A DNA stretch of 29,248 bases from Pseudomonadota bacterium (GTDB lineage: Bacteria; Desulfobacterota; Desulfobacteria; Desulfobacterales; JBDRRP01). Below the pieces are notes generated by a model. That model was not told where the DNA came from. It did no database searches and saw only the letters and a program-made list of their open reading frames with translations. The stretch lies in NCBI GenBank assembly GCA_043825735.1, contig JBDRRP010000136.1:62001-91248 (forward strand). The letters run 5' to 3'. Shown here one piece after another: positions 9,028 to 29,243 of the stretch. Every line of letters begins with the position of its first letter. Position 1 is the first letter of the stretch. Position numbers and translations under genes: made by a program.

Positions 9028-9057
9028 TTGACAACTTTTAGGGAATCTGGAAAGGAT
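9028..9057 (+). promoter_or_regulatory. Putative sigma70 promoter of the trp leader/trpEGDCF
   Basis: Perfect TTGACA at 9028-9033, about 55 bp before the leader ATG; the -10 element is poor (AAGGAT at 18-bp spacing). Confidence 0.4.
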
Positions 9058-9087: not shown

Positions 9088-9171
9088 ATGAAAGATCGCA
9101 CCACCATCTTGCCGGGTCGATTTTGGTGGTGGCGGGGCTGGCTCACGCCGCCTGCCGCCGGGCAGGGATGA
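9088..9171 (+). CDS. trpL: trp operon leader peptide, 27 aa MKDRTTILPGRFWWWRGWLTPPAAGQG
   Basis: ATG 9088 downstream of GGAGAAAGG; three consecutive TGG codons at 9124-9132 plus a fourth at 9139; followed by terminators and trpE. Confidence 0.88.
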   Translation: MKDRTTILPGRFWWWRGWLTPPAAGQG

Positions 9172-9198
9172 TCCGTTCTCTTTATTGAGATGATTCCC

Positions 9199-9230
9199 AA
9201 GACCGTGGCAGATAAAGCCACGGTCTTTTT
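9199..9230 (+). terminator. Attenuator terminator 1
   Basis: AAGACCGTGGC (9199-9209) / GCCACGGTCTT (9217-9227) perfect stem, 7-nt loop, running into TTTTT. Confidence 0.88.
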
Positions 9231-9233
9231 GTT

Positions 9234-9265: not shown

Positions 9266-9318
9266 ACCCATAGTGAGTGTCCATCCAGAAACGGTTTGGG
9301 CATTCAGACGAGGCGCCC

Positions 9319-10821
9319 ATGAGAATCAGGCATTTTCCGGACAAGGGCCAATTTACAGCGCTGGCGCAGCACCACAATGTCGTGCCGATATGCATCGAAG
9401 TATTGGCCGACACCGAGACCCCGGTATCCTTGTTGAAAAAGCTCCATGACGGTCGTCGCGCCATCTTCTTGTTTGAAAGCGTGGAGGGGGGCGAGCGCTG
9501 GGGGCGATACAGCTTTCTCGGTACCAACGCCAGAAGCCACATCCGCGTTTTCCGCGACGCGGTGGTGATCGAGGAAAACGGCGACACCACCCGCACCCCC
9601 CACAACGGCGATCCGCTGGCCGTGTTAAAGGCGGTGGCCGGGCGCTACCGCATGGCGGAAATGGCCGGCCTGCCGCGATTTCTGGGAGGTCTGGTGGGCT
9701 ACATGAACTACGAGATGGTCTCGTTTTTCGAGGCCATCCCCAATCGCCTGGCACCGGATACACCGCTGGCGCATTTCATTATTCCCGATGAGCTTCTGAT
9801 TTTTGACAATATCCGCCATACGCTCACGGCCGCCACCGTCGTCTTCATTGCACCGGAAGATGATCCGGGCCGGCTCTTCGATGACGCACTGGCACGCACC
9901 GAAAGTCTTCTGGCCACCATCGCGGCAACCCCGCTGATCAACGGCGACGACGTGCCGGGCCCGGTGGTGCGCATCTCGCCGGTCGTGGACGCGGAGGCCT
10001 TCCGGCAGCGCGTGCGCACGGTCAAAGACCACATTTACGCCGGAGACATCATCCAGGCGGTGGTTTCCCAGCCGTTTGTCTGCGATGCGCCCGCCGATCT
10101 GTGGATGCTCTATCGGGCCCAGCGTTTCATCAACCCATCGCCGTATCTGTTCTTTCTTCATTTCGACGAACTGGCGCTGGTGGGCTCGTCTCCGGAGGCC
10201 ATGGTGCGTCTGGAAAACCGGGTGGCCACGTTGAGGCCCATCGCCGGCACGCGACCCCGCGGGCGCAGCGAACAAGAGGATCGGGCGCTGGCCGATGCGC
10301 TGCTGGCTGACGAGAAGGAGCGGGCCGAGCATCTGATGCTCGTGGATCTGGGGCGAAACGATCTGGGGCGGATCGCCGAGACGGGTACCGTGCAGGTCAC
10401 CGATCTCATGGTGGTGGAGCGCTACTCGCATGTCATGCACCTGGTGTCCAATATCTCTTGCGATATTTTGGACGGCAAGGATGCCTGGGACCTGATTCGG
10501 GCGACCTTTCCAGCCGGGACCCTTTCCGGAGCCCCAAAGATCAGGGCCATGGAAATCATCGCCGAGCTGGAGAGCTCCCCGCGCGGTCCTTACGGCGGCG
10601 CGGTCGGGTATGTGTCTTTCAACGGCAACATGGACATGGCCATCACGATTCGTACAGCGGCGGTCACCGGCGGGAAAATGATCGTCAGGGCCGGTGCGGG
10701 GATCGTGGCCGACAGCGATCCGGAAACCGAGCGCCAGGAGACTGTAAACAAGGCCATGGCCATCCAGAATGCGCTCCAGCTTATGAGCGGCGGGGACCGG
10801 CCCGAGGGAGATCAGCCATGA
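9319..10821 (+). CDS. trpE: Anthranilate synthase component I
   Basis: ADTETPVS, LFESVEGGERWGRYSF, NPSPY, GSSPE, RPIAGTRPRG, KERAEHLMLVDLGRND, FPAGTLSGAPK; ATG 9319 after GAGG. Confidence 0.95.
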   Translation: MRIRHFPDKGQFTALAQHHNVVPICIEVLADTETPVSLLKKLHDGRRAIFLFESVEGGERWGRYSFLGTNARSHIRVFRDAVVIEENGDTTRTPHNGDPLAVLKAVAGRYRMAEMAGLPRFLGGLVGYMNYEMVSFFEAIPNRLAPDTPLAHFIIPDELLIFDNIRHTLTAATVVFIAPEDDPGRLFDDALARTESLLATIAATPLINGDDVPGPVVRISPVVDAEAFRQRVRTVKDHIYAGDIIQAVVSQPFVCDAPADLWMLYRAQRFINPSPYLFFLHFDELALVGSSPEAMVRLENRVATLRPIAGTRPRGRSEQEDRALADALLADEKERAEHLMLVDLGRNDLGRIAETGTVQVTDLMVVERYSHVMHLVSNISCDILDGKDAWDLIRATFPAGTLSGAPKIRAMEIIAELESSPRGPYGGAVGYVSFNGNMDMAITIRTAAVTGGKMIVRAGAGIVADSDPETERQETVNKAMAIQNALQLMSGGDRPEGDQP

Positions 10822-11396
10822 TCATCATGATCGACAACTACGATTCGTTCACCTACAATCTGGTGCAAGATATCCGTCAGATCGGCTATCCGGTGGCGGT
10901 GTATCGAAATGATGCCCTCAGCGTGGCGGCCATTGCGGATCTGGCCCCGCGTGCCATCGTGATATCCCCGGGTCCCGGACGCCCCGAGGATGCCGGTATC
11001 TGTCTTGAGGTCGTCGCCACTTTTTCAGGAAAGATACCGCTGCTCGGCGTATGCCTGGGACACCAGACCATCGCCCAGGCCTTCGGCGGCACGATCGTCA
11101 ACGCCCGGCGGCTCATGCACGGTAAGACATCCATGGTGACCGCAGACGGGCAGACCATTTTCAAGGGTATCAAGTCGCCCTTTCAGGCCATGCGCTATCA
11201 CAGCCTGGTGGCCGATCGACAGCGCCTTCCCGAGCAGCTTGTCGTCAGCGCCGAGTCCGACGACGGCGAAATCATGGGGCTGCGCCACCGGGAGCATATG
11301 ACCGAGGGGATCCAGTTTCACCCCGAGTCCATTATGACACCGGTGGGTAAACGGCTCATGCGCAACTTCCTGCGCATGGCCATGGTCGATCATTGA
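10818..11396 (+). CDS. trpG: Anthranilate synthase component II (glutamine amidotransferase)
   Basis: IDNYDSFTYNL, SPGPG, GVCLGHQ, RYHSL, QFHPES; ATGA overlap with the trpE stop. Confidence 0.95.
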   Translation: MIIMIDNYDSFTYNLVQDIRQIGYPVAVYRNDALSVAAIADLAPRAIVISPGPGRPEDAGICLEVVATFSGKIPLLGVCLGHQTIAQAFGGTIVNARRLMHGKTSMVTADGQTIFKGIKSPFQAMRYHSLVADRQRLPEQLVVSAESDDGEIMGLRHREHMTEGIQFHPESIMTPVGKRLMRNFLRMAMVDH

Positions 11397-11430
11397 CGGA
11401 ATCGGCGGTAGAAAAATGGGGGGAGATCAC

Positions 11431-11503
11431 CACGGAGTTCACGGAGGGCACGGAGAAAAGCAACAGGATTTGTTTTTAAAAATTTATCTCCGTGTCCTCC
11501 GTG
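11431..11503. repeat. CACGGAG-family periodic inverted repeat within the trp operon
   Basis: Three 9-bp units CACGGAGnn at 11431-11457 and inverted arm ATCTCCGTGTCCTCCGTG at 11486-11503; the same 18-mer recurs at 26346-26363. Confidence 0.85.
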
Positions 11504-11557
11504 GTTCAAATCATCTTTTGGATAGTGTTTACCGCATCACGACAAAAGGAGAAAATC

Positions 11558-12577
11558 ATGGCCTTCAAGGATCTTTTGCAGCTGATCATCAAACGGCAGG
11601 ATCTGACGTCGTCGCAGATGGCGGAGATGATCTCCGAGGTGCTTTCCGGGACCGTCACCGACGCCCAGATCGGGGCCATGATGGCGGCGCTTGCCACCAA
11701 GGGGGAGACCTATGCGGAGCTGGCCGGCGCGGCTCAGGCCATGCGGCGAAAGGCGGCGCGCATTCAGGCGCCGGGTCAGACCGTCGTGGACACCTGCGGC
11801 ACCGGCGGTGACGGCGCCAGCACCTTCAACATCTCCACCACCACAGCCTTCGTGGTGGCCGGCTGTGGGGTGATCGTGGCCAAGCACGGCAACCGGTCGG
11901 TGTCCAGCCAGTGCGGCAGCGCCGATCTGCTCGAAGCGCTGGGTGTGAAGCTGGATGTGGACCCGGAGATCGTGGAGGAAGCCCTTCAGGAGATCGGCAT
12001 CGGCTTTCTTTTCGCCCCGGTGTTTCACGGGGCCATGCGGTATGCCGCCCCGGCGAGAAAGCAGATCGGTCTCAGAAGTATTTTCAACATGCTGGGGCCG
12101 CTCACCAACCCGGCCGGCGCCAACTGCCAGCTGCTGGGGGTTTACGCCCCCGAACTGACCGAAATGTTCGCCAAGGCCCTTCAGGAACTCGGCGCCCGCC
12201 GGGCCCTGGTGGTTCACGGCCACGACGGGCTCGACGAGATTTCCGTGTGTGCGCCCACCCGGGTCTCTGAGCTGAATGACGGAATGATCAAGACCTACGA
12301 CCTGTCGCCGGAAACCTATTTCGGCGAGCCGGCCGATCCCGCGTCCATGACCGGCGGCGGCCCTGCCCAAAATGCCGACATTACCCGCCGGATTCTCACC
12401 GGAGAGACCGGCCCCCGGCGGAATGTGGTTATGTTTAATGCCGGCGCGGCGCTCATGGCCGCCGGCAAGGTCGACACGGTGAAAGCGGGCATCGCCATGG
12501 CTGCCGCCGCCATCGACAGCGGCGCCGCCATGCACAAACTGGAGGCCCTGGCGGCCTACACCCGGGAGAACGGTTGA
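11558..12577 (+). CDS. trpD: Anthranilate phosphoribosyltransferase
   Basis: DTCGTGGDG, FNIST, KHGNRSVSS, GSAD, FNMLGPLTNP, GLDEIS; ATG 11558 after AAGGAG. Confidence 0.97.
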   Translation: MAFKDLLQLIIKRQDLTSSQMAEMISEVLSGTVTDAQIGAMMAALATKGETYAELAGAAQAMRRKAARIQAPGQTVVDTCGTGGDGASTFNISTTTAFVVAGCGVIVAKHGNRSVSSQCGSADLLEALGVKLDVDPEIVEEALQEIGIGFLFAPVFHGAMRYAAPARKQIGLRSIFNMLGPLTNPAGANCQLLGVYAPELTEMFAKALQELGARRALVVHGHDGLDEISVCAPTRVSELNDGMIKTYDLSPETYFGEPADPASMTGGGPAQNADITRRILTGETGPRRNVVMFNAGAALMAAGKVDTVKAGIAMAAAAIDSGAAMHKLEALAAYTRENG

Positions 12578-13371
12578 TGGCGGCAGACATCCTATCGCGT
12601 ATCGTTGCCACAACCCGGGAGACGGTGGCCGCGGCTCAGGCCAGGCGGCCGCTGGCGGACTTAAAGGCCCGCGCTTCAGGCGCATCCCCGGTGCGGCCCT
12701 TTTTGCCCGATAGCGACCCCCGGCCGGTGTCCATCATTGCCGAGATCAAGCGGGCGTCGCCGTCAAAGGGCGACATCGCCATCGACCTCGACCCCGCTCG
12801 GCTGGCGGCGTCCTATGAGGCCGGCGGTGCGGCGGCGCTGTCGGTGCTGACCGACGCGCCGTTTTTCAAGGGCAGTGCGCTGGACCTCATGACGGCCCGG
12901 GCGGCGGTTTCCCTGCCCGTCCTGCGAAAGGACTTCATCGTCACCGAGTACCAGGTCTACGAGGCGCGCAGCTGGGGCGCCGATGCCGTACTGCTCATCG
13001 CCCGCATACTTTCCCCGCACCAGATGGCCGAGCTGTGCGCCTGCGTGCGGGCGCTGGGCATGGAACCGCTGGTGGAGATCCATACCGAAGCGGATCTGGA
13101 AACAATTCCGGGCGCGTGCGCGCGTCTCATCGGCATCAACAACCGGGATCTCAAATCATTTGACACGAGCCTGGACCGGGCCATCGGCCTTGCCGGTCGG
13201 CTGGCGCCCCACCAGGTGCCCGTGGCAGCCAGCGGCATTGCCGCCCGTGAAGACATCGCCCGAAACTTGGCCCACGGCATCCGGCATTTTCTCATCGGCG
13301 AGAGTCTGGTCAGAGCCGCCGATCCGGTGGCTTTTCTCAAAGATCTTGCCAACATCGAAGAGACACCCTGA
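12577..13371 (+). CDS. trpC: Indole-3-glycerol phosphate synthase
   Basis: IAEIKRASPSKG, LSVLTD..FF.G, LRKDFI, GADAVLLI, GINNRDL, LIGESL; TGATG overlap with trpD. Confidence 0.96.
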   Translation: MAADILSRIVATTRETVAAAQARRPLADLKARASGASPVRPFLPDSDPRPVSIIAEIKRASPSKGDIAIDLDPARLAASYEAGGAAALSVLTDAPFFKGSALDLMTARAAVSLPVLRKDFIVTEYQVYEARSWGADAVLLIARILSPHQMAELCACVRALGMEPLVEIHTEADLETIPGACARLIGINNRDLKSFDTSLDRAIGLAGRLAPHQVPVAASGIAAREDIARNLAHGIRHFLIGESLVRAADPVAFLKDLANIEETP

Positions 13372-14045
13372 TGGCGCCCAACGAGCCCCAGATAAAGATC
13401 TGTGGTCTGAGAGACCCGGACATGGCCGCCGAGGCGGCCGCCTTGGGCGCCGATGCCATCGGCTGCGTCTTCTTTGCGAAAAGCCCCCGCAACGTGTCCC
13501 CGGACACCGCACGGGCCATCCGAGCAGCGGTGCCGGACGCCGTTGGGATCATCGGTGTTTTTGCGGATATCGATTACGACGGCGCCATGTCTATTGTTGA
13601 CCGATGCGGTCTGGACGGCGTGCAGCTTCATGGGCATGAAACAGCGGAGACGGTTGCTCGGCTGCGGGGGCAGGGGCTGATCGTGCTCAAGGCCCTGTTT
13701 ACGGCCAGGGCGCCGGGAATAGACCGGGCCGGCGATTACGATCCGACGGCGTTTCTCGTGGAAGCCGGAAAGGGTCCCCTGCCCGGCGGCAACGCTGAAA
13801 CCTGGCAGTGGCAGGATGTGCGGGGCTTTTCAGAGCACCATCCCCTGGTGCTGGCCGGTGGGTTAAACGCGGACACCGTGGCCGGCGCCATCGCAACGGC
13901 GGCCCCGGACGCCGTGGACGTCAGCAGCGGGGTGGAAATCCGGCCCGGGGTCAAAAGCCTGGAGAAGATCGCCGCATTTATCGCTGCGGTGCGCCAATGC
14001 AAAGGGGCTGGCCTAAAGGGGCGGAGATTGAGGAAGGTGTTCTGA
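13371..14045 (+). CDS. trpF: Phosphoribosylanthranilate isomerase
   Basis: IKICGL, GADAIG.VF..KSPR, VQLHG.E, LAGGL, VDVSSGVE; TGATG overlap with trpC. Confidence 0.96.
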   Translation: MAPNEPQIKICGLRDPDMAAEAAALGADAIGCVFFAKSPRNVSPDTARAIRAAVPDAVGIIGVFADIDYDGAMSIVDRCGLDGVQLHGHETAETVARLRGQGLIVLKALFTARAPGIDRAGDYDPTAFLVEAGKGPLPGGNAETWQWQDVRGFSEHHPLVLAGGLNADTVAGAIATAAPDAVDVSSGVEIRPGVKSLEKIAAFIAAVRQCKGAGLKGRRLRKVF

Positions 14046-14250: not shown

Positions 14251-16551
14251 TCAGTCTACCGCGGTCCCCACCATCGCTCTATCAATCGCGTCCTTTAGCG
14301 CCGCCTTCTGATACGGTTTGTGCAAAAAGATCTGATAGCGGGTGTCGGGATGTCCACCGCTGAACACTCTGGACTCGTCGTGTCCGCTGGCCAGGACCAC
14401 GGGAATGTCCGGCCGGATTAGTCTGAGTGCGGCCACGGTCTCCCAGCCGTTCATGCGGGGCATGCTCAGGTCACACAGGACGACGTGGATATCATCGCGT
14501 CGGTCCCGGAACAATTCCAGCGCCTCCAAGCCGTCTTTTGCCGCGAACACCTTAAAGCCAAGGCGTGAGAGCATTGTCGTGGCCATGCTGCGCATCATCT
14601 CCTCGTCTTCGACCAGCAGTACGGTACCGCTGCCTTCCATTGCCAGAGATCGGGAGGTTTTGTCGGGCGGCCGGGCGACATCTTCCAAAGGCATTGGCAG
14701 ATAAACCCGGAAGGTGCTTCCTTTCCCCTGCCGGCTCTCAACGGTAATAACGCCGCCGTGGGTCTTGACAATCCCAAGAACCACCGGCAGGCCGAGGCCC
14801 CTGCCGGTGAATTTGCTGGAGAAAAACGGATCGAAGAGTTTTTCGATATTGGCCTCCGCGATCCCGCAGCCAGCATCTGCTACTTCGATGCAGGCATAAA
14901 TCAGGTCATTGGCCTGCCAGTCGATGGGGTAGCGGTTGACATCGCTGATGTGCTCGTAAGAAACCTTTTTCAGGGTCAGATCAACGGCCCCCTGGCGCTC
15001 GCCGACAGCTTCCAGGGCGTTGGTGACAAGATGGGTCAGAACCTGCTGGATCTGGTTCGCATTGGCGCTGAGAATCAGGCCGGGGGACGGTAAATCGGCC
15101 TTGATAACAAGACCCTTGGGCGCTGCCGTCTGCAGCAGCGGCAGGCTTTGCCGGCAGGTTTCACACAGGTTCAGCGGTGTGCGCAGTCCGGTGGTTTGCC
15201 CGAGATACGTGAGCATCGAGCCGCTGACTTCCGCGGCCTTTCGGGCACCCTTCATCGCGATAGCGAGTATCTCGGTGATTTCCGCATCCCGTGGCAGCTC
15301 GTCAATGGCCAGCTCCAGACTGCCCATCACCACGCCGAGCTGGTTGTTGAAGTGATGGGCGATGGCCCCTGCCATGCTGTTGAGGCTGTTTGCCTTTTCC
15401 AGTTGTTGCTGCTGGCGCTCCCATTTTCGCTGTTCTTCTTCAAGCCGTTTTCGCTCTGCCAGTTCGTGATGCACGGCCTGATACAGGCTGGCGTTTTCGA
15501 TGGCTGCAGAGATCTGCTCGGCGTAGAGCATGGCGATCTGCAGGGAGCCGCGATTGAAGGCGATGGCCGAAAACCGCACGGCGAACAACACGCCGTGGAT
15601 GAGGTCTTTCCGGTGAATCGGAATCGCCAAAAATGCCTTCACCGGCGCTACGCTCAATGGCACCGGAGAATTCTGAAGCAAGATCGTTGTCAGATCGGCG
15701 GTGCTGTATGGCTCGCCCCGTCCGAGCGGCGAGGATGCCATCAGATGTTTGGTGATGCGGCTTAACGCGGTGGTGCATAACGCTTCAAGGCCGGTCTGTG
15801 CCGCGCAGTAAAACTCGCCGTCCGGGGCGCTGAGGACAAGCGCGGAGGCATCGGCACTGACAATGACCGGAAACATGTTTACCGCTTCAGCAGACACCGT
15901 GATGAGGTCAAGATGACAGCTGATTTCTCGGCCGCTTTGAACGATTTTTTCAAATTGTACACTTCGCTGCGCCTCGATCAGGGTTCGACCGATTCGGTAG
16001 GCCATGGTTCTGAGCAGGCCGACCTCGGACCTGGCAAAGGGGATCGGGCTGCAACGGGCGAGAATCAGCGCTCCGCGGTTGATCTGACTGCCATCTACCG
16101 GCAGGCCGATAATCGTCTCGGCGCCCATGTCGCGGAGCTGGAAATCAATTGTCGGATCGGCGTCGGCATTCTCGATCAGCACGGGTGCGTCCGTGTGCAT
16201 CAGCCGTTGTGTAAAGCTGCCCTGCGCTTCGGAAAAAGGTAGGGGCAATATATCCTCTGATAGTCCGACCGCCGCGAGAGGGGCAAATGATCCGGTTCCG
16301 ACCGGGTCGAGCAGCACGACGATATCGGCCAGAAACAACTCCGAAAGCGTTGATAAAATCCGATCGAGCAACAGATCCAACGGGCCGGAGTCATTCAGGA
16401 TAGTCAGCAGGCGGGTCAGGCGGGTCGTGTCCCGAACAGCCTCTCTGGCGGCCTGTACAGCGGCGTCGCGGCCTGCGCGCAGACGAAGAAGATCGTCTCC
16501 ACCCAGCGATTCGGTATTTTTTTCCCGTTCCCGATCGATGCGTTGGGGCAC
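14251..16551 (-). CDS. Cytoplasmic hybrid histidine kinase (2x GAF-like, HisKA, HATPase, REC)
   Basis: H-box MAGAIAHHFNN, DAGCG, FDPFFSSKFTGRGLGL, receiver VLLVEDE..DLSMPRMNG; two GAF-like segments. Start re-assigned to GTG 16551 (AAGGGA SD, 10 bp after the FIST stop). Confidence 0.88.
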   Translation of the reverse strand: MPQRIDREREKNTESLGGDDLLRLRAGRDAAVQAAREAVRDTTRLTRLLTILNDSGPLDLLLDRILSTLSELFLADIVVLLDPVGTGSFAPLAAVGLSEDILPLPFSEAQGSFTQRLMHTDAPVLIENADADPTIDFQLRDMGAETIIGLPVDGSQINRGALILARCSPIPFARSEVGLLRTMAYRIGRTLIEAQRSVQFEKIVQSGREISCHLDLITVSAEAVNMFPVIVSADASALVLSAPDGEFYCAAQTGLEALCTTALSRITKHLMASSPLGRGEPYSTADLTTILLQNSPVPLSVAPVKAFLAIPIHRKDLIHGVLFAVRFSAIAFNRGSLQIAMLYAEQISAAIENASLYQAVHHELAERKRLEEEQRKWERQQQQLEKANSLNSMAGAIAHHFNNQLGVVMGSLELAIDELPRDAEITEILAIAMKGARKAAEVSGSMLTYLGQTTGLRTPLNLCETCRQSLPLLQTAAPKGLVIKADLPSPGLILSANANQIQQVLTHLVTNALEAVGERQGAVDLTLKKVSYEHISDVNRYPIDWQANDLIYACIEVADAGCGIAEANIEKLFDPFFSSKFTGRGLGLPVVLGIVKTHGGVITVESRQGKGSTFRVYLPMPLEDVARPPDKTSRSLAMEGSGTVLLVEDEEMMRSMATTMLSRLGFKVFAAKDGLEALELFRDRRDDIHVVLCDLSMPRMNGWETVAALRLIRPDIPVVLASGHDESRVFSGGHPDTRYQIFLHKPYQKAALKDAIDRAMVGTAVD

Positions 16552-16561
16552 GCCTGATCCC

Positions 16562-17728
16562 TTAAAGTGCCAGCACCGTGAGGGTGGCGTTGTGTGTTCC
16601 AAGAACGCCGGCGGTTCGTGCAAACTCGCCGCAGCAATATATCCCGAAGGTCGACACCTCTCCAGCCGCCGCCTGCAGCCGTTGCGCTTCCTCGAGGGTG
16701 CGCGGTCCAAAGATGACCGCTCTCGCTGCACAACTGAAGGCCAGCAATACCCCTGCTTTTGGATGACGGGCCAGTGCTTCGCGCGCGACCTCGCCGGCGA
16801 CATCGAGCAAGGCCTCGGTGGAACTGCTCATTACCTGAACGGCGCTGCCTGTCGGCGGCACGCATCCCTGAATCATGAGCGTCCCCTGCGCCGTCTTGGA
16901 GCGGGCGACCCGGATCACGGCGGTACCATCGGATTGGAGCAGACCGAACGGATGAACGATGGACGTGCCCCAAAACGCCTCGGCGCTCAACTCACCCGGA
17001 GCAAATCCCAGTTGTTCCTCGTAGGCGATGGCGGCCGGTCGTCCGCCAAGCTCGATGATTTCCGTGCCTTCGGCGCGGGTCACCAGCATTGGAACGCCGA
17101 TCGGCTCCCAGCCGTGCCGCGTCACGACCGGCAGCGGCTCATCACTGGCAATCCAGAGGGCCGCGGCCCCGCCCTCAATGACCTGGTCATCATGGAACAC
17201 AAAGGTCCGCTCGAATTTGAGCTCGTCGCCGGCGGCACCGCCGGTGATGGCGACCTTCGGCCCGGTGATGCGATAGACGCCCTGCACCAACTGTTGCAGA
17301 TCCCCGGCAAGACAATCGGCGAGGAGCATCACCGCCGCGTGAGGGCTCGGGCCCGCCGCCGCTTTGCTCGTGCGGGCGATGATTTGTCCCACCTGGTCAA
17401 GATTGCCCTTGATGTCGGTGGCCGATGCCAAACCAAACCGGTATGGCCCGGCCGTCAAAGCGAGAACCCCAACGCCGCCGCCGAAGCCCAGATATTGCCC
17501 CTGCAGGATTTCACCGGAACCGGTGGCTCCAATCAGATGGGTGGCGCCGGTAACCGAGCGGATTCCCGCTATCAGCTCAGGAAGCGCGTAGCGGGGCGTA
17601 GTGAAGACAATGATGAGCGCCGGCGTTTCACCGGCAAGCCCGGCGATAGCGGCGGTTGCCGCTTCGCATCCGGCTGCGAACGCATTCTCATTGATCCTGC
17701 TAACGCCGATACCTGTTTGAATTCTCAT
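16562..17728 (-). CDS. FIST-domain sensory protein (FIST_N + FIST_C, NosP-like)
   Basis: LIGATGSGEI, GGAAGD, HGWEPIG, ELGGRPA, FSCAAR, G.Y..GE..HNAT: typical FIST motifs; ATG at 17728. Confidence 0.88.
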   Translation of the reverse strand: MRIQTGIGVSRINENAFAAGCEAATAAIAGLAGETPALIIVFTTPRYALPELIAGIRSVTGATHLIGATGSGEILQGQYLGFGGGVGVLALTAGPYRFGLASATDIKGNLDQVGQIIARTSKAAAGPSPHAAVMLLADCLAGDLQQLVQGVYRITGPKVAITGGAAGDELKFERTFVFHDDQVIEGGAAALWIASDEPLPVVTRHGWEPIGVPMLVTRAEGTEIIELGGRPAAIAYEEQLGFAPGELSAEAFWGTSIVHPFGLLQSDGTAVIRVARSKTAQGTLMIQGCVPPTGSAVQVMSSSTEALLDVAGEVAREALARHPKAGVLLAFSCAARAVIFGPRTLEEAQRLQAAAGEVSTFGIYCCGEFARTAGVLGTHNATLTVLAL

Positions 17729-17913: not shown

Positions 17914-19830
17914 TTAAAGGGTTCTGTCAAGAAGGGGAAAATGCCCCTGCAGTGCGCGAAAGGCGTTTTTGCCCAGGGCACCCGGCCCGGCCTCAGGCTT
18001 GCCGTCGGTCCCATCGAGCACGGAGCGCACCGCCGTCGCCAGATTCTGGATCTTAACCGGTTTCATCAAATACCCGCGGATGCCAATGGCCGCGGCTTTT
18101 TCCTGACTGATCCGCTCACTGAATCCGGTGCAAAGGATGATGGGAATGTCGCTTCTGATCGATATCAATTCCGCAGCCAGGCGATCGCCGGTCATCCGGG
18201 GCATCGCCACGTCCGTTACAACGAAATCCCAGGCGTCGGGAGCGGTTTTGAAGGCCTCCAGGGCATCGATGCTGCTGGACATTGCGGTGACTTGATACCC
18301 CAAATGCACCAGCATCCGCTGCTGGGTCCTCAGCACCAGTTCATCATCATCGACCAGCAGGACCCGCTCGTTTTCCGACGGTCTGGTTATTTTTTCCGCG
18401 ACGATGTCGGTACTTGCCGGTGTTTCCATGATCGGCAGGTAGATATCGAAGGTGGATCCTCTGCCCGGTTCACTGAAAACCTCAATATCCCCGCCGTGCT
18501 CAGCGATGATGCCGTAAGCCACGGCAAGGCCAAGACCGGTCCCTTTGCCTGTTTCCTTGGTCGTAAAATATGGTTCGAAGATCTTGTCCATGACAACCGG
18601 GTTTATCCCCATGCCGGTGTCACAGATGGTGAGTCTGGCATAGGGCCCCGGCGCGAGGTGGCTTGCTGCCGAGTCCTGATCGGTGAACACCGTCTCCTGG
18701 AGGTGGATCGTGATTTTCCCACCGTCGCGTTCGACGGCATGGTAGGCATTGGTGACGATATTCATGATGACCTGATGGAGTTGCGATGCGTCCCCGTGGA
18801 CCCTGCCGCACTCGGAGTCGATGTCCTGCTCGATCTCGATATCTGCGGGGATGGTGAAGCGAACCAGCCGGGACACCTGCCCCAGGATTTGGAGAAGGTT
18901 CACCGGTGCTTTTTCCCGCTTGGTTTTACGACTGAAGGCAAGGATCTGATCGACCAACTCGGTCCCTCTTTTCCCTGCGAGCAGGATTTCCCGGGCGCTT
19001 TCGTGCTCCGGGCTGCCGGGGGGCAGTTCCAGCGTGAGCAGTTCAGCCATGCCGGTGATGGGAAACAGAATATTGTTGAAGTCGTGAGCGATCCCTCCGG
19101 CCAGATTGCCGATGGAATCCATCTTTTGCGATTGCTGAAGATGGAATTCCGCTTTTTTCCGCTCGCGGATCTCCTTTGTCAACTGATGGTACAGGCGGCG
19201 GTATTTTTCTTCCGATGTTGCCAGTCCGACATTTGCCTGCACCAAACGGCGACGGTAGACGTTTCGGGCAATCTCTGCGCTGGAAATGAAAACGCTCGAG
19301 AGCAGCAATGATAAGAAGAATCGCGGCATGAGCGCACCGGTTGACAGGAACTCCGGGGGCGAAGAAATAAAATAGGCTGAAGCAACCGCGGCGGCGAAAA
19401 CGCCGGAGATGACCGCCCCGTGCTTGACGCCGATGATGATAACGGCCACGTAACAGAAAGGAAATACCCAGGGTATCAGCTCCCAGTCTCCAATGGCGCA
19501 AATACCGTAAAGCAGAAACAGTCCGGCGGACAGGACCTGTACCGTGAAGAGGGTGTTACCGATCATCATCTTTCTCGACTGCGCGATCGGCGTTCGGTCA
19601 ATGGCGACGGCCAGCAGCGCGAGAAACAAAATCCACGATACGATGGCCGCGCTCAGGGTGCTGGCGTTCAGCCAAAAATAGCCCATCAACGCGGTCATTA
19701 ACGGGCAGATCACCCAAGTGTCCACTTTTAAGATAAATTTGTAAGCATACACCGCCAGTTCGGACTGAATCACCGTTGGCAGATCGTGCTGGATATCGTC
19801 CACCGCTTCCACTTCCTTCTTATGCTCCAA
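17914..19830 (-). CDS. Membrane-anchored hybrid histidine kinase (multi-TM, HisKA, HATPase, REC)
   Basis: About six hydrophobic segments, [60 protein letters not shown]. Start uncertain. Confidence 0.88.
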
Positions 19831-20083: not shown

Positions 20084-20845
20084 CTACCGCAAACTCCGGA
20101 TAAAAGCCTCCACTGCGCCGACGCCCTGCTCGTTCACCAGGCGGATGGTCTGGGTGCCGATGACGGCGATGTCCACCTTTCCCTTTAAAAAATCCACATC
20201 CTTTTTGTCTTTTACGCCGAACCCCAGAGCCAGCGGCAGTGCGGTGGCCTTGCGGCAGCGCTTCAGGTAGGTGTCCAGATCGTCGGAAAACTGGGTTTCC
20301 CTGCCGGTGACCCCTTTTCGGGCCACGCAGTACACGAACCCGCTGGCGTGGGAATCGATTTCGGCCATTCGGGCCTCGGGGGTGGTCGGGGCGTAGATGA
20401 AAATGGGGGAGAGATCCCGGCGCTTCATGGCCGCCAGGTAGTCGCCGCCTTCTTCCGGCGGCAGGTCGGGGACGATGGCCCCCTTCAGGCCGCGTTCGGC
20501 CATGGCATCGGCAAAGGCGTCGATGCCGTATTTGTAAAGGATGTTGTAGTAGGTCATGAACAGAAAGGGGATGTCGTGCGCCGCGGCCACGCTGGCGGCG
20601 AAATCGAGGCACTGGGCCACCCGGGCGCCGCGGGCCAGCGCCTCCTGGTTGGCCTTGAGGATCACCGGGCCGTCGGCCATGGGCTCTGAAAAGGGGATCT
20701 GCAGTTCCATGAGATCCACTCCGGCGGCCACCATAGCGGCCACGATATCGCGGCAGGCCTCGAAGCTGGGATAGCCCAGGACGATATGGGTCATGAGCAG
20801 GATGTCTTTGGTCTTCAACCGGTCACGGATATAGCTCTCAAGCAT
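20084..20845 (-). CDS. trpA: Tryptophan synthase alpha chain
   Basis: GYPS, ELQIPFSEPMADGPVI, MTYYN, IVPDLPPEE, APTT, GVTG, LGFGV; ATG 20845 overlaps the trpB end by 8 bp. Confidence 0.96.
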   Translation of the reverse strand: MLESYIRDRLKTKDILLMTHIVLGYPSFEACRDIVAAMVAAGVDLMELQIPFSEPMADGPVILKANQEALARGARVAQCLDFAASVAAAHDIPFLFMTYYNILYKYGIDAFADAMAERGLKGAIVPDLPPEEGGDYLAAMKRRDLSPIFIYAPTTPEARMAEIDSHASGFVYCVARKGVTGRETQFSDDLDTYLKRCRKATALPLALGFGVKDKKDVDFLKGKVDIAVIGTQTIRLVNEQGVGAVEAFIRSLR

Positions 20846-22064
20846 TGTAACCCTCTGCTTTCTTCCGGATGAACGCTTTCCACTCGGGATCCCCGAAGGC
20901 GTCGGCGATGGTGAAGATATCCTTGTCGCCCCGGCCGGACTGATTGATGATGATGCTGTCCTTGGGCGACAGGCCGGGGGCGTCCTTGAAGGCCTGGACA
21001 AAGGCGTGGGCCGATTCCAGGGCCGGGATGACGCCCTCCATCTGCATGGTCATCTTCATGGCTTCGATGACTTCGCTATCGGTTGCCGCGGTAAACTGCA
21101 CGCGGCCGCTTTCTCGCAGCGAGGAGAGAATCGGCGAGACGCCCACGTAGTCCAACCCGGCGGCCACGCTGTGGGTCTCCTTCATCTGTCCATCGTCGTC
21201 CTGAAGGAAAAAGGTCCGGTATCCCTGGGCGACGCCGATGCTGCCATCCTTGGATGCCAGCCGCGCCGCGTGCTCGCCGCTCTCGAGGCCCCGGCCGCCG
21301 GCCTCCACCCCCACCAGCGCGACCGGGTCGTCCATGAATCCGGTGAAAATGCCCATGGCGTTGGAGCCGCCCCCCACGCAGGCGTAGATGCGCGCCGGCA
21401 GTCGTCCTTCGGCCGATAGAATCTGCTTTCGGGCCTCCTTGCCGATGATGCTCTGAAAATGGGTCACCATCTCGGGAAACGGGTGGGGTCCGCAGGCGGT
21501 GCCCAGCACATAGTGGGTGTCGTCCATGTGGGTCACCCAGTCGCGGAAGGCCTCGTTGATGGCGTCTTTGAGAATCCGGGTGCCGTCGGTGACCGGGACC
21601 ACTTCGGCGCCGAGGCGCTGCATCCAGAACACGTTGGGCCGCTGGCGCTCCACGTCCACCTCACCCATGTAGATGGTGCAGCGGAATCCGAACTTGGCCG
21701 CCATGGTGGCCGTGGCCACGCCGTGCTGGCCGGCCCCGGTTTCGGCGATGACCCGTTTTTTGCCCATGCGCCGCACCAGCAGCCCCTGGCCCATGACATT
21801 GTTGGCCTTGTGGGCGCCGGTGTGGTTGAGGTCTTCTCGCTTGATGTAGATCCGGGCGCCGCCGAAATGCCGGGTGAGGTTTTCGGCAAAGGTCAGTGGC
21901 GTCGGCCGGCAGGAATAGGTGCTCATGAGCTGGACGTATTCCGCCCAGAAGGCCGGATCATCGCGGATCTCCAAAAACGCCGCTTCGAGTTCGTCGAAGG
22001 TGGCCACCAGCACTTCGGGCAGAAACGCCCCGCCGAAGCGGCCGAAATATCCGCGGTTACGCAT
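20838..22064 (-). CDS. trpB: Tryptophan synthase beta chain (TrpB1 type)
   Basis: GYFGRFGG, KREDLNHTGAHK (PLP lysine), AETGAGQHG, CVGGGSNAMG, GLDY.GV, IPALESAHA, SGRGDKD; ATG 22064 after GGAGG. Confidence 0.97.
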   Translation of the reverse strand: MRNRGYFGRFGGAFLPEVLVATFDELEAAFLEIRDDPAFWAEYVQLMSTYSCRPTPLTFAENLTRHFGGARIYIKREDLNHTGAHKANNVMGQGLLVRRMGKKRVIAETGAGQHGVATATMAAKFGFRCTIYMGEVDVERQRPNVFWMQRLGAEVVPVTDGTRILKDAINEAFRDWVTHMDDTHYVLGTACGPHPFPEMVTHFQSIIGKEARKQILSAEGRLPARIYACVGGGSNAMGIFTGFMDDPVALVGVEAGGRGLESGEHAARLASKDGSIGVAQGYRTFFLQDDDGQMKETHSVAAGLDYVGVSPILSSLRESGRVQFTAATDSEVIEAMKMTMQMEGVIPALESAHAFVQAFKDAPGLSPKDSIIINQSGRGDKDIFTIADAFGDPEWKAFIRKKAEGYNA

Positions 22065-22791
22065 CGGTAAATCCTCCAATGGTTTGAGAAAAGACAAACT
22101 GGTCGGTGCGGCAATACATCGCGGCGTAGACGGCGTTTTCCTTGTCGGAAAAATTGATGGTCCGGTTGACCAGCAGGATCGGCGTGGCGGCGGCCACTTC
22201 GAGCGCCGCCGCGCGCCGGCCCTGGACATAATCGATTCTGAACTGCTGCTTGCCGCCGGTGGGCCGCAGAAAGTAGTGCTCTTCCACGATCCGGCTGAGC
22301 GACTGGTGCCGCAGGTCCATGCGGTCGATGTCCCGAAAGACCGTGCTGTCTAAATAAATGTCCTCGATAAGGACGGGGCACCCTGCCACGGTGCGCAGGC
22401 GTGAAATGAAATAAGCGGGTTGACCGGTCAGCGGGTTGGCCTCGTCACCGGCGGGGACGGTCTCCAGGCGGGGGCCTTCCAGGAGCGTCGTGGTTACGGA
22501 AATGCCTTCCTGGTGAAAGGCGGCAGTGGTCCCTGCCAGCGAAAAGAGGTTCACTTCCTTGGTGGCCTGCCGGACAAAGGTGCCCGAGCCCCGGCGGCGC
22601 ATGAGAATGCGTTTTCGCACCAGAAGATCGGTGGCCTGGCGGGCGGTGGGCCGTCCGATGCCGTACGCAGCGGCGAGCTGGTGTTCCGAGGGGATCCGTT
22701 CGCCCGGCGGGTATTCGCCGCAGCGGATCTTGGCCAGCAGAATGTCCGCCAGTTGATAGTAGAGCGGCACCGGTGATTGGAGGTTGAGCAT
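22057..22791 (-). CDS. GntR-family regulator, HutC subfamily (wHTH + UTRA)
   Basis: PLYYQL, YPPGERIPSEHQLAAAYGIGRPTARQA..RRRGSGTFV; C-terminal UTRA-like pattern (ISRLR..PVLIE..YL, SL..IVE, PILLVNR, YCRTDQF); overlaps the trpB start by 8 bp. Confidence 0.92.
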   Translation of the reverse strand: MLNLQSPVPLYYQLADILLAKIRCGEYPPGERIPSEHQLAAAYGIGRPTARQATDLLVRKRILMRRRGSGTFVRQATKEVNLFSLAGTTAAFHQEGISVTTTLLEGPRLETVPAGDEANPLTGQPAYFISRLRTVAGCPVLIEDIYLDSTVFRDIDRMDLRHQSLSRIVEEHYFLRPTGGKQQFRIDYVQGRRAAALEVAAATPILLVNRTINFSDKENAVYAAMYCRTDQFVFSQTIGGFTDA

Positions 22792-23000
22792 GGTCTTGCC
22801 TCGATCGGGTTTTTGCGGTTTGCGTCCAAAACGCATCCGGCGGTGTTTTGACATCATCTCCGTCGAAACGGGACTCCGGTCTTTGACGCAGCAGCGTTAC
22901 TCCGCTTTTCAGGGGAGCGGCGGGCGCTTGCGGTAGCCGGCCCCCTGCCAGGTCTCGGTCGCGCCATCGGCGGCAGACCAAGGGGTAGGCAAAATTGGTA

Positions 23001-23018
23001 AAGTTGTCAAGACAAATT
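23001..23018. promoter_or_regulatory. Putative HutC/GntR-type operator overlapping a minus-strand TTGACA (-35)
   Basis: AAGTTGTCAAGACAAATT, imperfect palindrome with core TTGTC-aa-GACAA (23004-23015), fitting the GT-N-(T/A)A-N-AC pattern of HutC-subfamily sites; about 210 bp upstream of gntR. Confidence 0.65.
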
Positions 23019-23116
23019 ATTCATCCGCTCAGGATCCACTCGAAAAACCCGGGCCTGGCCGCAGGCAAGGCGCAACCGCTGCCGGATACCCTTTTCGGTG
23101 GTCGATACCGGGGCGC

Positions 23117-24643
23117 TCATCCTCTATAGATGCGGAAGTCGATGCCGAACTTTTGTGCCTTGTAGTTGAATTTGCGGACGGTGGTCTTGAGCAGGGCTGC
23201 GGCGGCAGTGGAGTTGCCCCGGGTATTTTTCAGAGAATCGATGATCATTTCCCGCTCCATATTGGCAATGGCATCCTCCAGTGACTGGGCCGGAAGGGTG
23301 CCTGATTCTTCGCCGGTCTGAAGGGTGGGGGGCAGGTGGTAGCTGTGGATGACGCCTTCCTCGCACAGCAGCACCGCCCGCTCGATGCAGTTTTCAAGCT
23401 CCCGCACGTTGCCCGGCCAGTGATAGGCCATGAGCATGTCGATGGCCGGCGTTGAAAACCGCTTGATGTCTTTCTGGTTTTCTTTCGCGTAGCCCTCGAG
23501 AAAATGGTCGGCCAGCAGCAGGACATCGGTTTTACGTTCCCTCAATGGGGGCATGTAGATGGGAAAAACATTGAGGCGGTAATACAGATCGTCCCTGAAA
23601 ATGCCCTCCTCGACGGCTTCTTCCAGGTTCTTATTGGTCGCGGCAACGATCCGGACATCCACCTTGATGGTTCGCTGGCCGCCGACGCGCTCGAGCTCCT
23701 TTTCCTGAAGGACCCTGAGCAGGTTGGCCTGCACATCGAGGCCGATGGAGCCGATTTCGTCGAGAAACAGCGTGCCGTTGTGGGCCAGCTCGAATTTGCC
23801 CAGTTTGAGTTTGATCGCTCCGGTGAACGCCCCTCTTTCATGCCCGAAGAGCTCGCTCTCGATGAGGTTTACCGGGATGGCCGCACAGTTGACCTTGATA
23901 AAGGGCCCCTTGGCCCGGGGGCTGTTGTAGTGGATCGAATTGGCGGCAAGCTCTTTGCCGGTGCCGCTTTCGCCGCGGATCAGCACGGTGGCGTTGCTGT
24001 GGCTCACCTGCGAGATCATCTGGAACACTTCGCGCATCTTGTTGCTGTTGCCGATGATGTTGGTGATGCTGTACTTGTTTTCCAGCTCGTTTCTGAGCCG
24101 CTTGTTTTCATCGCGCAGCATTTCCTTTTCGCGCTTGATGTTTTCGATGTTGATCACGTGCTGGGCGATCATGGTGGCCACCACCGAGAGCAGCTTCTGG
24201 CTGTTTTTAAGCGGATAAGCGTCGTTGAACGCCTGATCGACGCTCAGGGCGCCGATGACGTGGTTGCCCTTTTTCACAGGTACGCAGATAAAGGAGCGCT
24301 CCTGGTCCTGTTTGGATTTGCGCGAAGCCGTGCGGTTGAGAAATCCGGGTTCCTCGCTGATTTTGGGAATGATCACGGGTTGGCCCGATTCGATAACCCG
24401 CCCGGTGATGCCCTCGCCGAGCTTGTATTTGGCTTTTTCCATGGCGGATTTGGAAAGTCCGTGGGCCACTTCGATGCGGATTTCATCCCGCAGCGGGTCG
24501 AGCAGAGTAACGGTGCCGCGGGCCATGTTGAGCGAGTTGGACAAGTTTTCAAGGACTATGTATAGGGCTTTGCGAAGGTCCAGATTTTCGTTGAGGGCCT
24601 TGCTGATTTCATAGAGCAGGGTGACTTCTTCAATGCGTTTCAT
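23117..24643 (-). CDS. GAF-domain sigma54-dependent activator (NifA-like architecture GAF-AAA+-HTH)
   Basis: [11 protein letters not shown] motif, [40 protein letters not shown]-terminal HTH; ATG 24643. Confidence 0.9.
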
Positions 24644-24741
24644 GGGGCGCTCTCGTCCTTGGTTGACATTTTTGAAGGGCAATTCATCCGGGCGAACAGT
24701 TTTGTAACAAATTGCCGCATTTTTCAAGGATTACTTTTGAC

Positions 24742-25914
24742 GTGATTCTCCATGTGGACATGGACGCTTTTTTTGCCGCGGTGGAGCAGCGCGACGACCC
24801 CGCGCTGAAGGGAAAATGCGTCATCGTGGGCGGCACCTCCGGAAGGGGGGTCGTGTCGGCGGCCAGCTACGAAGCCCGGCGCTTTGGCGTGCATTCGGCC
24901 ATGCCGGTGTTCCAGGCCCGGCAGCGGTGTCCCCACGGCGTGTTCGTTCATCCCCGGATGGGTCGCTACAAGGAAGTATCCGCCGAGGTGATGGCCATTT
25001 TCCACAGGTATTCGCCGCTGGTGGAGCCGGTGTCCGTGGACGAAGCCTATCTGGACGTCAGTGGGTGCGGCCGCCTGCTCGGGGCGCCGGTGGATATCGC
25101 CGCGCGCATCAAGGCCGCGGTGCATGCGGAAACCGCGCTGACCTGCTCCATCGGTATCGCCCCCTGTAAATTTCTGGCCAAGATCGCCTCCGATATGAAT
25201 AAACCCGACGGGCTCACCCACATTCTCCCTGAAACCATACCCGAGTTTATCGACGCCCTGGACATCCGCAAAGTGCCGGGCGTGGGGGCCGCCACCGAAC
25301 CGGTGCTGCGGCAACTGGGGATTCACCGGCTCGGGGATGTGCGGCGTATTCCCGAGGCGCTGCTGGAGCGGCACCTGGGCCAGTACGGGCGGCGCCTCAG
25401 GCAGCTGGCCGAAGGCGATGACGGCTCCCCGGTGGTTCCCTCGACGCCGGCCAAATCGGTGAGCTCGGAAACCACCCTGCAAAAAGACACCGCCGATGCG
25501 GGTATTTTACGCCGTCACATGCTCCAGCAGTCGGAAACGGTGGCACGGCAGCTCCGGCGCGGCGGGGTCAAGGCCTGCACCGTTCAGATCAAGATGAAAG
25601 ATGCCGCCTTTCACCAGATCACGCGCCGCACCACCCTGGCGGCGCCAACTCAGTCCGGGCGCGCCATCTACGGCGCCGCCTGCGCCCTTCTGGAGCGCCA
25701 CCCGCCCCAGGGGAAGCTGCGTCTCATCGGCGTGGGGGCCGCCGGGCTCACCACCGAGAGCCGCCCCCGGCAGGCATCACTTTTTGACGCCGGGGCGTGC
25801 ACAGACGGCGATTGGGAAAAGGCCGATACGGTGATGGACCGCATCGCGGACAAATTCGGCCGCGATGCCATCCGGCGCGCGGCGCTGGTTGAGCGGGAAG
25901 AAGATGACGGATGA
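24742..25914 (+). CDS. dinB: DNA polymerase IV
   Basis: ILHVDMDAFFAAVE, ASYEARRFGVHSAM, SVDEAYLD, KIASDMNKPDG, C-terminal clamp-binding-like QASLF; probable GTG start at 24742. Confidence 0.96.
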   Translation: MILHVDMDAFFAAVEQRDDPALKGKCVIVGGTSGRGVVSAASYEARRFGVHSAMPVFQARQRCPHGVFVHPRMGRYKEVSAEVMAIFHRYSPLVEPVSVDEAYLDVSGCGRLLGAPVDIAARIKAAVHAETALTCSIGIAPCKFLAKIASDMNKPDGLTHILPETIPEFIDALDIRKVPGVGAATEPVLRQLGIHRLGDVRRIPEALLERHLGQYGRRLRQLAEGDDGSPVVPSTPAKSVSSETTLQKDTADAGILRRHMLQQSETVARQLRRGGVKACTVQIKMKDAAFHQITRRTTLAAPTQSGRAIYGAACALLERHPPQGKLRLIGVGAAGLTTESRPRQASLFDAGACTDGDWEKADTVMDRIADKFGRDAIRRAALVEREEDDG

Positions 25915-28296: not shown

Positions 28297-29243
28297 TGGG
28301 GTCGCACCAAGCCAAGTAGAAGTAATCACGATTAAAGATAAGAAAATACCCCCAAGAAACGGGCCAATAATGAGTTTTTTGATGCCAAAAAAGAGGATAT
28401 AGCGTTTTCATGGCCAGAGCGCATCGACATTTTGTTCCCGGTCAGGTTTGGCACATCACACATCGGTGCCACAAAAGAGAATTTTTACTGAAGTTCGCTA
28501 AAGACCGGCACCGCTATCTGCAATGGCTTTACGAAACCAGGAAGCGATACGGATTGGTGGTATTGAATTACACCGTGACAAGCAATCATATCCATTTGCT
28601 CGTCTACGATGATGCTGCCAGCGCTCCTGATGCGATCGCCAAATCGATTCAACTGGTGGCGGGAAGAACCGGACAGGAGTTCAATCAGCGCAAGAAGCGA
28701 AAAGGGGCATACTGGGAGGACCGGTACCATGCCACCGTCATCGAGGATGGCGAGCACCTGTTGCGCTGCATCGTGTATATCGACTTGAACATGGTTCGCG
28801 CCGGTGTGGTTACCCATCCCGTGCAATGGCTGCACGGCGGCTACAATGAGATTCAGGCGCCTCGGCGCAAGTGTATTCTGATCGATTACGATGCGCTTTG
28901 CAGTTTATCTGGATATAATGATTACGCAGTTTTCAAGAACGCACATCGAAAATGGGTTGATGCCGAGGTAGCAAAGGCCGGTTTGAAAAGGCAGCCCCAA
29001 TGGTCCGAGGCGATTGGCGTAGGAAGCGCATCCTTTGTTGCATCAGTGAAAGAGCAGATGAAAGCGATGGCCATAGGACGTAGCCTGAAATCGTCGGATG
29101 GGGCAGGCAGTTTCGAATTGAGGGAGGCGGTCACATCCTATAATCCCCATTTTAGGCCTGAAAAGAGCGATATTGGGCAAGAAAACACCCTGTTTTGGGA
29201 TAAAGTTTGAGCAATTATAGAGGGATAGCTTGGTGCGACCCCA
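28297..29243 (+). mobile_element. Putative ~947-bp element: RAYT-like gene bounded by 16-bp perfect inverted repeats
   Basis: TGGGGTCGCACCAAGC (28297-28312) and GCTTGGTGCGACCCCA (29228-29243) are exact reverse complements; the interior looks more AT-rich than neighbouring genes. Confidence 0.7.
28410..29210 (+). CDS. Y1 HUH transposase, REP-associated tyrosine transposase (RAYT)-like
   Basis: MAR..R..PG..WHIT.R, TSNHIHLL (HUH), G.YWEDRYHA, YIDLNMVRAG (catalytic Tyr region), HP..W; SD AGAGG. Confidence 0.88.
   Translation: MARAHRHFVPGQVWHITHRCHKREFLLKFAKDRHRYLQWLYETRKRYGLVVLNYTVTSNHIHLLVYDDAASAPDAIAKSIQLVAGRTGQEFNQRKKRKGAYWEDRYHATVIEDGEHLLRCIVYIDLNMVRAGVVTHPVQWLHGGYNEIQAPRRKCILIDYDALCSLSGYNDYAVFKNAHRKWVDAEVAKAGLKRQPQWSEAIGVGSASFVASVKEQMKAMAIGRSLKSSDGAGSFELREAVTSYNPHFRPEKSDIGQENTLFWDKV

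Follow-up and report, generated by a model that had tools for sequence, protein, structure and literature searches.

Control of tryptophan (Trp) biosynthesis is a textbook model with a short list of dedicated regulators, and its classical systems are the TrpR repressor, leader-peptide attenuation, TRAP, the T-box and TrpY. TrpI of Pseudomonas is a LysR-type activator of trpBA that is induced by indole-3-glycerol phosphate (InGP; PMC9105386, citing Chang and Crawford 1990), and the same account places TrpI control only in members of the Pseudomonas family (PMC9105386). A second point of comparison is provided by NagR (YvoA) of Bacillus subtilis and DasR of Streptomyces coelicolor, which are repressors of amino-sugar genes. 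Here we describe a gene for a HutC/UTRA-subfamily GntR regulator that heads an operon with the tryptophan synthase genes trpB and trpA, located in a 29,248-nt stretch of a Desulfobacterales genome (assembly GCA_043825735.1, contig JBDRRP010000136.1, positions 62,001 to 91,248 of the forward strand; hereafter the window). Like TrpI, it is a dedicated regulator adjoining a trpBA pair separated from the rest of the trp genes; unlike TrpI, it comes from the Desulfobacterota and from an unrelated protein family. We think it likely that this protein is a dedicated HutC-type repressor of the regulator-trpBA operon that is released by a ligand, with InGP as the leading candidate. The gene identities, the conserved linkage, the position of the operator over the promoter, the co-occurrence of operator and regulator and the single-operon regulon were each established in silico.

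The three genes of the operon lie on the minus strand, beginning with the regulator (22057..22791, 244 residues), followed by trpB, encoding the tryptophan synthase beta chain (20838..22064; NCBIfam TIGR00263, 590.5 bits against a cut-off of 392), and trpA, encoding the alpha chain (20084..20845; TIGR00262, 215.9 bits against a cut-off of 102). The initial annotation had described them as a single unit, joined by 8-bp overlaps and separate from trpEGDCF, and this description holds. All three open reading frames (ORFs) are real, the regulator and trpB overlap at ATGCGTAA (22064-22057), trpB and trpA overlap at ATGCTTGA (20845-20838), and the trpE-G-D-C-F genes (assigned by Pfam), which make the TrpA substrate InGP, form a distinct operon on the plus strand (9277..14045). 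The N-termini of orthologues (MLNxxSPxPLY) place the start of the regulator at ATG 22791 and not at the in-frame ATG of the longest ORF (22857), so that in the window genome the operator described below lies approximately 200 nt 5' of the start codon. The trpB ribosome-binding site, GGAGG (22073..22077, minus strand), is embedded within the last codons of the regulator (C-terminal ..IGG..), and a comparison of 49 loci found a GGAGG-like Shine-Dalgarno sequence 8-10 nt before the trpB ATG, again inside the regulator's C-terminal codons. Whole-genome tblastn searches identified trpA as single copy and the trpB of the operon as the sole canonical trpB; because there is no second trpA and the TrpB paralogue is only 28% identical, the operon encodes the genome's only canonical tryptophan synthase. 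The paralogue, a TrpB-like pyridoxal-phosphate enzyme encoded at C57:50217-51167 (minus strand), may be of the TrpB2 type.

Orthologues of the regulator were detected in 112 of 401 Desulfobacterales genomes (E <= 1e-40, 46-83% identity), in single copy except for one genome, and in 8 of 401 genomes sampled across the phylum, 5 of these outside the Desulfobacterales; both genome sets are samples with related members. The group is sharply set apart: 12 of 41 relatives match with E <= 1e-74, and the next hit in rank falls to 1e-21. A search of genome contigs with the single protein returned three true relatives only, and the breadth of the distribution is taken from the genome-sample searches. 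A public protein collection contains 1240 clusters at E <= 1e-30, and the names among the 120 best listed clusters are generic ('GntR family transcriptional regulator' or 'UTRA domain-containing protein').

Gene order was compared in 50 genomes besides the window's own, made up of 11 + 30 new + 5 + 3 + 1 loci (one of the 31 loci from the order search duplicates a locus of the relatives set and was counted once, leaving 30 new). The linkage noticed at this one locus is conserved: trpB lies directly 3' of the regulator on the same strand in 49 of the 50 genomes (10 of 11, all 30 new loci, 5 of 5, and the sets of 3 and 1), and in the one remaining genome the contig stops at the regulator gene. 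The initial annotation had named loss of this linkage in other genomes as grounds for rejecting its proposal, and the comparison gives no such grounds. Wherever the locus is long enough, trpA follows trpB (29 of 31 and 5 of 5). The end of the regulator gene overlaps the beginning of trpB in 36 of 49 loci, the overlap being 8 nt long in 25 of these, 11 nt in 7 and 23 nt in 4; the remaining 13 have a gap of 18-382 nt. The regulator proteins average 61% identity across loci, and their pairwise identities correlate with those of TrpB (40 loci; r = 0.76, a value reached by 0 of 999 permutations, and descriptive since the genomes are non-independent kin), as would be expected if both proteins were inherited as one unit.

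Upstream of the regulator lies a 26-nt block, TAATTTGTCTTGACAACTTTACCAAT (22994..23019, minus strand), which covers the -35 box and spacer of a predicted promoter and has the highest position weight matrix (PWM) score in the 6.8-Mb genome (47.1). Its consensus across loci is AAATTTGTCTTGACAACTTTACCAAT. The initial annotation had pointed to a palindrome overlapping TTGACA at this position and had suggested looking for a motif upstream of orthologues, and both leads were productive. The palindrome AAGTTGTCAAGACAAATT (23001-23018) is unique in the window, was matched in 0 of 100 shuffles at <=2 mismatches in a pattern search, overlaps TTGACA on the minus strand (23010-23005) and is a likely operator over the promoter; its perfect arms are only 5 nt long, and a repeat finder with a seed of 6 missed it. 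The 26-nt block was found upstream of the regulator at 48 loci (10 of 12, 30 of 31, 4 of 5, 3 of 3 and 1 of 1), which includes every locus with >282 nt of upstream sequence; the five loci lacking it have only 102, 175 or 282 nt upstream, or a contig ending inside the gene. An alignment of 45 sites (47 loci as input, less one without the motif and one with too little flank) shows 17 of the 26 positions to be invariant, with flanks at approximately 0.05 bit per position. The block can be written as a 20-bp imperfect dyad, AAATTTGTCT followed by TGACAACTTT, with 8 of 10 pairs complementary. A third half-site in the block, ACCAAT (ATTGGT on the opposite strand), stands 8 nt away from its neighbour AGTTGT. 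Weaker extra boxes 7-12 nt from site centres are described for GntR-family sites in PMC4494728, compared with approximately 13 nt for the centre of the extra box here.

The -35 hexamer within the operator, TTGACA (23005..23010, minus strand), is invariant in 45 of 45 sites. The candidate -10 hexamer, TACCCC (22982..22987, minus strand; 17-nt spacer), is weak in the window genome, matching the consensus at 2 of 6 positions, and a simple sigma-70 consensus scan did not flag the operator promoter; across the 45 sites a TA is conserved at this position (T 0.71, A 0.82), consistent with a -10 box. In 46 loci the start codon lies 34 to 286 nt beyond the first T of TTGACA; the spacing is exactly 35 nt in 7 of them and 34, 37 or 40 nt in three more, and it is never <34 nt. 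This hard lower bound supports the promoter assignment, and with a 35-nt spacing the A of the ATG falls at the canonical +1, i.e. the geometry of a leaderless mRNA. The regulator mRNA is thus probably leaderless at L033, L037, L038, L040, L045, L046, L050, L054, L058 and L036, where the start codon is 34-40 nt away. The leader in the window genome is approximately 180 nt long and is not conserved even within the genus.

Two loci deserve separate mention. At L062 (G232:C1, ~3989-4740) a second operator copy accompanies a regulator gene interrupted by TAG that retains residues 1-213 only; there is no trpB downstream, and it looks like a duplicated promoter-regulator fragment. At L004, the first 175 nt, at the contig end and immediately 5' of the regulator, hold an array of tandem CCGATAAC/CCGACAAC-like units, standing where the operator would be expected further upstream.

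The block co-occurs with the regulator. PWM scores at regulator loci were 33.5-48.8, whereas at 19 trpB loci of regulator-less genomes the block was absent (best score 9.2, either strand). Within its own genome the operator (47.1) is followed by a site scoring 23.2, with the rest at <=15.6. Among 10 other genomes, perfect matches to a 17-nt degenerate pattern occurred only ahead of the regulator gene, with a single match in each genome except the one with two regulator copies, which has two; imperfect matches numbered 22, versus 18 for a reversed control, and none of the 22 lay beside a trp gene or ilvD. No recurrent second target was found among the 11 genomes scanned. The regulon thus seems to consist of this operon alone, and a regulon limited to the regulator's own operon implies that the regulator is autoregulated. 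The initial annotation had proposed autoregulation, and comparative genomics strongly supports it, with the predicted site preceding the regulator's own gene and no other target recurring.

Two further sites in the window genome were considered. The second-best PWM site (C113:8804-8829, L022; score 23.2) lies approximately 250 nt upstream of an ilvD-like ORF. The trpE promoter region (9023-9038, plus strand) has a direct repeat, ACAACTTGACAACTT, and has CTTGACAACTTT in common with the regulator operator (PWM 12.1); this similarity recurs only in the same-genus genome G001 and not in four other carriers, and may reflect either chance or a weak second site specific to the lineage. Both were rejected as members of the regulon on the grounds that the imperfect pattern matches in the 10 other genomes include no ilvD or trp site and that the trpE similarity is confined to the genus.

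These two resemblances, together with the perfect -35 hexamer inside the block, are what might be expected if the block were no more than a strong and conserved promoter or a site for some other factor, with the regulator acting elsewhere or being merely co-transcribed. Such an explanation is very improbable: it would leave unaccounted for the absence of the block from all 19 trpB loci without the regulator and the lack of a recurrent second target in 11 genomes, and conservation continues across the spacer and over 9 nt on the upstream side of the -35 hexamer, where sigma-70 makes no base-specific demands. Moreover, the dyad symmetry of the block is of the HutC type and matches the reading residues of the protein (see below). 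It is therefore highly probable, judging from these comparisons, that the protein is a local regulator of trpBA acting through the 26-nt site.

The family assignment made by the initial annotation is secure. The protein matches the GntR winged-helix DNA-binding domain (PF00392, 66 bits against a cut-off of 27, over the full profile 1-64) and the UTRA effector domain of chorismate-lyase fold (PF07702, 67 bits against a cut-off of 23.8). These are the only Pfam domains found, without the LysR helix-turn-helix or substrate-binding domain of TrpI. An AlphaFold2 model (mean pLDDT 87.4) has NagR/YvoA, DasR and PhnF as its top Foldseek matches, and it aligns with the effector domains of DasR, PhnF, HutC and TreR at TM-scores of 0.78-0.85. 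NagR and DasR are the best match in the PDB by sequence (2wv0, 4u0v, 4wwc, 4zs8; E 9e-21) and by fold (Foldseek E 3e-18, effector-domain TM-score 0.83-0.84), and the domain order is alike; they differ in that identity is only approximately 26%, in that the target here is tryptophan synthase as opposed to amino-sugar genes, and in that the regulator gene here heads the operon, often with translational coupling to the gene for the enzyme. The NagR/DasR amino-sugar repressors are characterized by residues for glucosamine-6-phosphate and N-acetylglucosamine-6-phosphate and by nag targets; here the phosphate site is kept in part, the sugar contacts are replaced, and the sole conserved target is trpBA. 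The NCBIfam equivalogs for the LSA1692 subfamily (92.7 bits against a cut-off of 275), HutC (TIGR02018; 84.9 against 220) and PhnF (TIGR02325; 77.1 against 156.8) have the two domains in common and give partial profile matches; because all scores fall far below the cut-offs, the regulator is no equivalog of any named regulator.

The protein and its predicted site agree in the residues that read DNA. PMC4494728 gives the HutC-subfamily operator consensus as GTMTAKAC, with GT and AC 4 nt apart, and the predicted operator core GTCTTGAC matches it at 7 of 8 positions with the usual GT-AC distance. According to the structural work on NagR, the crystallized palindrome 5'-GTGGTCTAGACCAC-3' is contacted at G-7, G-5 and G-4, with G-4 read by Arg48, G-5 by Arg38 and G-7 by Gly69 (PMC4333415). 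Each of 41 family members has the equivalents of Arg48 and Gly69 (R47 and G68), and the half-sites TTTGTCT and TGACAAC both carry G-4. Unlike in NagR, position -5 is T in both half-sites, and the equivalent of Arg38 is His or variable.

A similar pattern of retention and replacement is seen in the effector domain. The phosphate of the NagR ligand is bound by Thr90, Ser165-Tyr167, Arg133 and Arg135, as described in PMC4333415. Most of these positions have conserved equivalents in the protein described here (T88/T89, R131 and S164-L165), of which T88, R131 and S164 are invariant and L165 is kept in at least 90%. In contrast, the sugar contacts of NagR are replaced: E222 by V/I221, S226 by M/L225, Y228 by an invariant C227, and Y167 by S/A. 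This suggests that the ligand is anionic and probably phosphorylated, with a more hydrophobic body than that of NagR, a reading drawn from one alignment at 26% identity.

The remainder of the Trp pathway provides the setting in which a candidate ligand can be considered. The window genome itself uses one of the classical controls: trpEGDCF is under separate control of a Trp-rich leader-peptide attenuator, predicted from a 27-residue leader peptide with 4 Trp (MKDRTTILPGRFWWWRGWLTPPAAGQG; 9088..9171, plus strand) and a terminator hairpin with a U-run ahead of trpE (9201..9233, plus strand; an 11-bp stem in both the minimum-free-energy and centroid structures). Of 5 other carrier genomes, 4 have a WWW-containing leader peptide ahead of trpE. 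Leader-peptide attenuation was thus found for trpE (9088-9233) and not for the regulator-trpBA unit, where the 203 nt from operator to regulator start contain no Trp-rich leader ORF and the sole ATG-initiated ORF is without Trp. No Rfam family reached its gathering threshold in the whole window, the trpE attenuator included, and the Pfam scan of the window found no Trp-repressor domain. The gene for InGP synthesis, trpC, is present in 11 of the 12 carriers of the relatives set, and the twelfth genome is 85% complete.

Taken with family precedent and the partial conservation of the NagR phosphate site, these features make InGP the leading and most economical candidate for the signal. The identification of the ligand as InGP is tentative, and we would put it at rather less than an even chance, with Trp, indole and other ligands making up the remainder. 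Because the target is biosynthetic, the end product itself would be the usual signal, and the protein might bind DNA only when loaded with Trp as a corepressor, in the manner of TrpR. A carboxylate could be accommodated at the conserved Arg/Ser/Thr anion site, in which just one of the two arginines of NagR is invariant, and the hydrophobic changes in the pocket (V/I221, M/L225 and C227) would suit the indole ring of Trp. Set against this, no HutC member is known to us to need a corepressor, and trpEGDCF already senses Trp through its leader peptide. The effectors in the structural work on NagR abolish repression (PMC4333415). On balance, Trp as corepressor seems unlikely.

The same hydrophobic substitutions, and the uncoupling of trpBA from the Trp-attenuated trpEGDCF, would also be compatible with induction by free indole, or by indole together with InGP, such that trpBA served as an indole-salvage module responding to environmental indole, independent of the early pathway. 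A TrpI-based reporter, built by its authors on the premise that TrpA interconverts indole and InGP, also answers added indole (PMC9105386). Against this possibility, an anion site formed by an invariant helix N-terminus and Arg (T88, R131, S164) would be needless for an uncharged ligand, and with trpC kept in 11 of 12 carriers none of those examined looks like a pure salvager. We consider indole still less likely than Trp.

Returning to a repressor that responds to InGP, the mechanism may be proposed as follows. A dimer of the regulator would bind the 20-bp palindrome containing the -35 box, with the extra half-site lying in the spacer, and binding would occlude the sigma-70 promoter so that the regulator represses both itself and tryptophan synthase. 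Repression rather than activation, the release by ligand and the identity of the ligand are steps that we infer; that the regulator acts as a repressor is nonetheless probable, since a site over the -35 box and spacer points to repression by promoter occlusion. Here again the system differs from that of TrpI, a divergent activator: the regulator gene is co-oriented with trpB and overlaps it, and a site over the -35 box fits a repressor. A small anionic and most likely phosphorylated ligand, bound in the UTRA domain, would lower the affinity for DNA and switch the operon on. When Trp is scarce, the attenuator would open trpEGDCF, InGP would rise, the repressor would leave the operator and tryptophan synthase would be made; when Trp is plentiful, InGP would fall and enzyme and repressor would both return to a low level. 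Shortage of Trp would thus be sensed once, at trpEGDCF, and relayed to trpBA through InGP, as with TrpI in Pseudomonas. The InGP signal and this feed-forward logic are the proposed part of the likeness to TrpI.

The distribution of TrpB sequences and gene orders bears on how the arrangement arose. In 41 relatives, TrpB is 75-100% identical in 13 genomes (12 regulator carriers plus G033) and 49-55% identical in 22, and 17 of 18 loci of the second class have the order trpC-trpF-trpB-trpA without the regulator. In 5 of the 12 carriers trpEGDCF and regulator-trpBA are convergent within approximately 6 kb, and in three they are directly adjacent. This convergence would fit an old inversion that severed trpBA from the attenuated promoter. 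It is conceivable, at somewhat under even odds, that the regulator represents an unrecognised class, an InGP-sensing HutC-type repressor that arose independently of TrpI upon the inversion splitting trpBA from trpEGDCF and that has become fixed, together with its nearly invariant operator, in roughly one quarter of the sampled Desulfobacterales as well as in further Desulfobacterota.

Several observations weigh against the proposed repressor. To our knowledge, the well-known HutC-type regulators all control catabolic or uptake genes, and we know of no anabolic precedent. In the effector domain, the second phosphate Arg of NagR (R135) is variable, being R in the window and S, T, Q or W elsewhere; the conserved anion site might equally suit a carboxylate such as that of Trp; and the mapping of residues comes from one pairwise HMMER alignment at approximately 26% identity. 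At the promoter, part of the conservation of the block is owed to the -35 hexamer itself, and the window genome combines a poor -10 candidate (TACCCC) and a leader of approximately 180 nt with a start site that is a prediction. Finally, in G033 (L092), TrpB and TrpA of the regulator clade (79% and 65% identity) are encoded behind trpC-trpF after a 190-nt gap, at a locus with neither regulator nor motif; the enzymes therefore do not require the regulator. The arrangement in G033 may be ancestral or reverted.

The domains, fold, operator type and autoregulation of the protein are those usual in the HutC subfamily; its novelty lies in the target and probably also in the ligand. The initial annotation knew of no characterised example, and in agreement with this a full-text literature search found no published description of a HutC/GntR regulator of trpBA, a 2008 review of trp operons lying outside its scope. 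If the proposal is correct, this would be the first HutC-family member known to us that governs a step of amino-acid biosynthesis. The main text of a comparative-genomics paper on the GntR family contains no mention of tryptophan, trpB or Desulf, and its supplements, which lie outside that scope, might list such a group (PMC4494728). A further unrelated regulator family at tryptophan synthase would show convergent feed-forward control after the splitting of an operon, in a system that occurs widely across an order of sulfate reducers of environmental importance and that is compact and well defined, with one protein, one 26-nt site and one operon. Should the ligand prove to be InGP or indole, the protein and its operator would form a compact repressor-type biosensor complementing the one based on TrpI. 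The combination of a HutC-type gene upstream of trpB with the motif could also serve as an annotation rule where public names are now only generic.

The neighbourhood of the operon contains several further regulatory genes. Upstream of the regulator lies a gene for a sigma-54-dependent activator with a GAF domain (23117-24727, minus strand; 528.3 bits with the NifA model, just under the cut-off of 528.85), which is followed by a terminator-like hairpin and T-run (23043..23066, minus strand) that separates it from the operator. This gene precedes the regulator only in genomes of the same family (L002 and L010; 2 of 11 loci, and 0 of 28 loci from the order search), and owing to this same-family association and the intervening hairpin it was rejected as a co-regulator. 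The 6 kb between the convergent trp units are filled by two hybrid histidine kinase/response-regulator genes (14251-16803 and 17914-19830, minus strand). Beyond the sigma-54 activator, the plus strand encodes a DinB/ImpB-type translesion polymerase (24712-25914) and an IS200-like Y1 transposase ORF (28410-29210).

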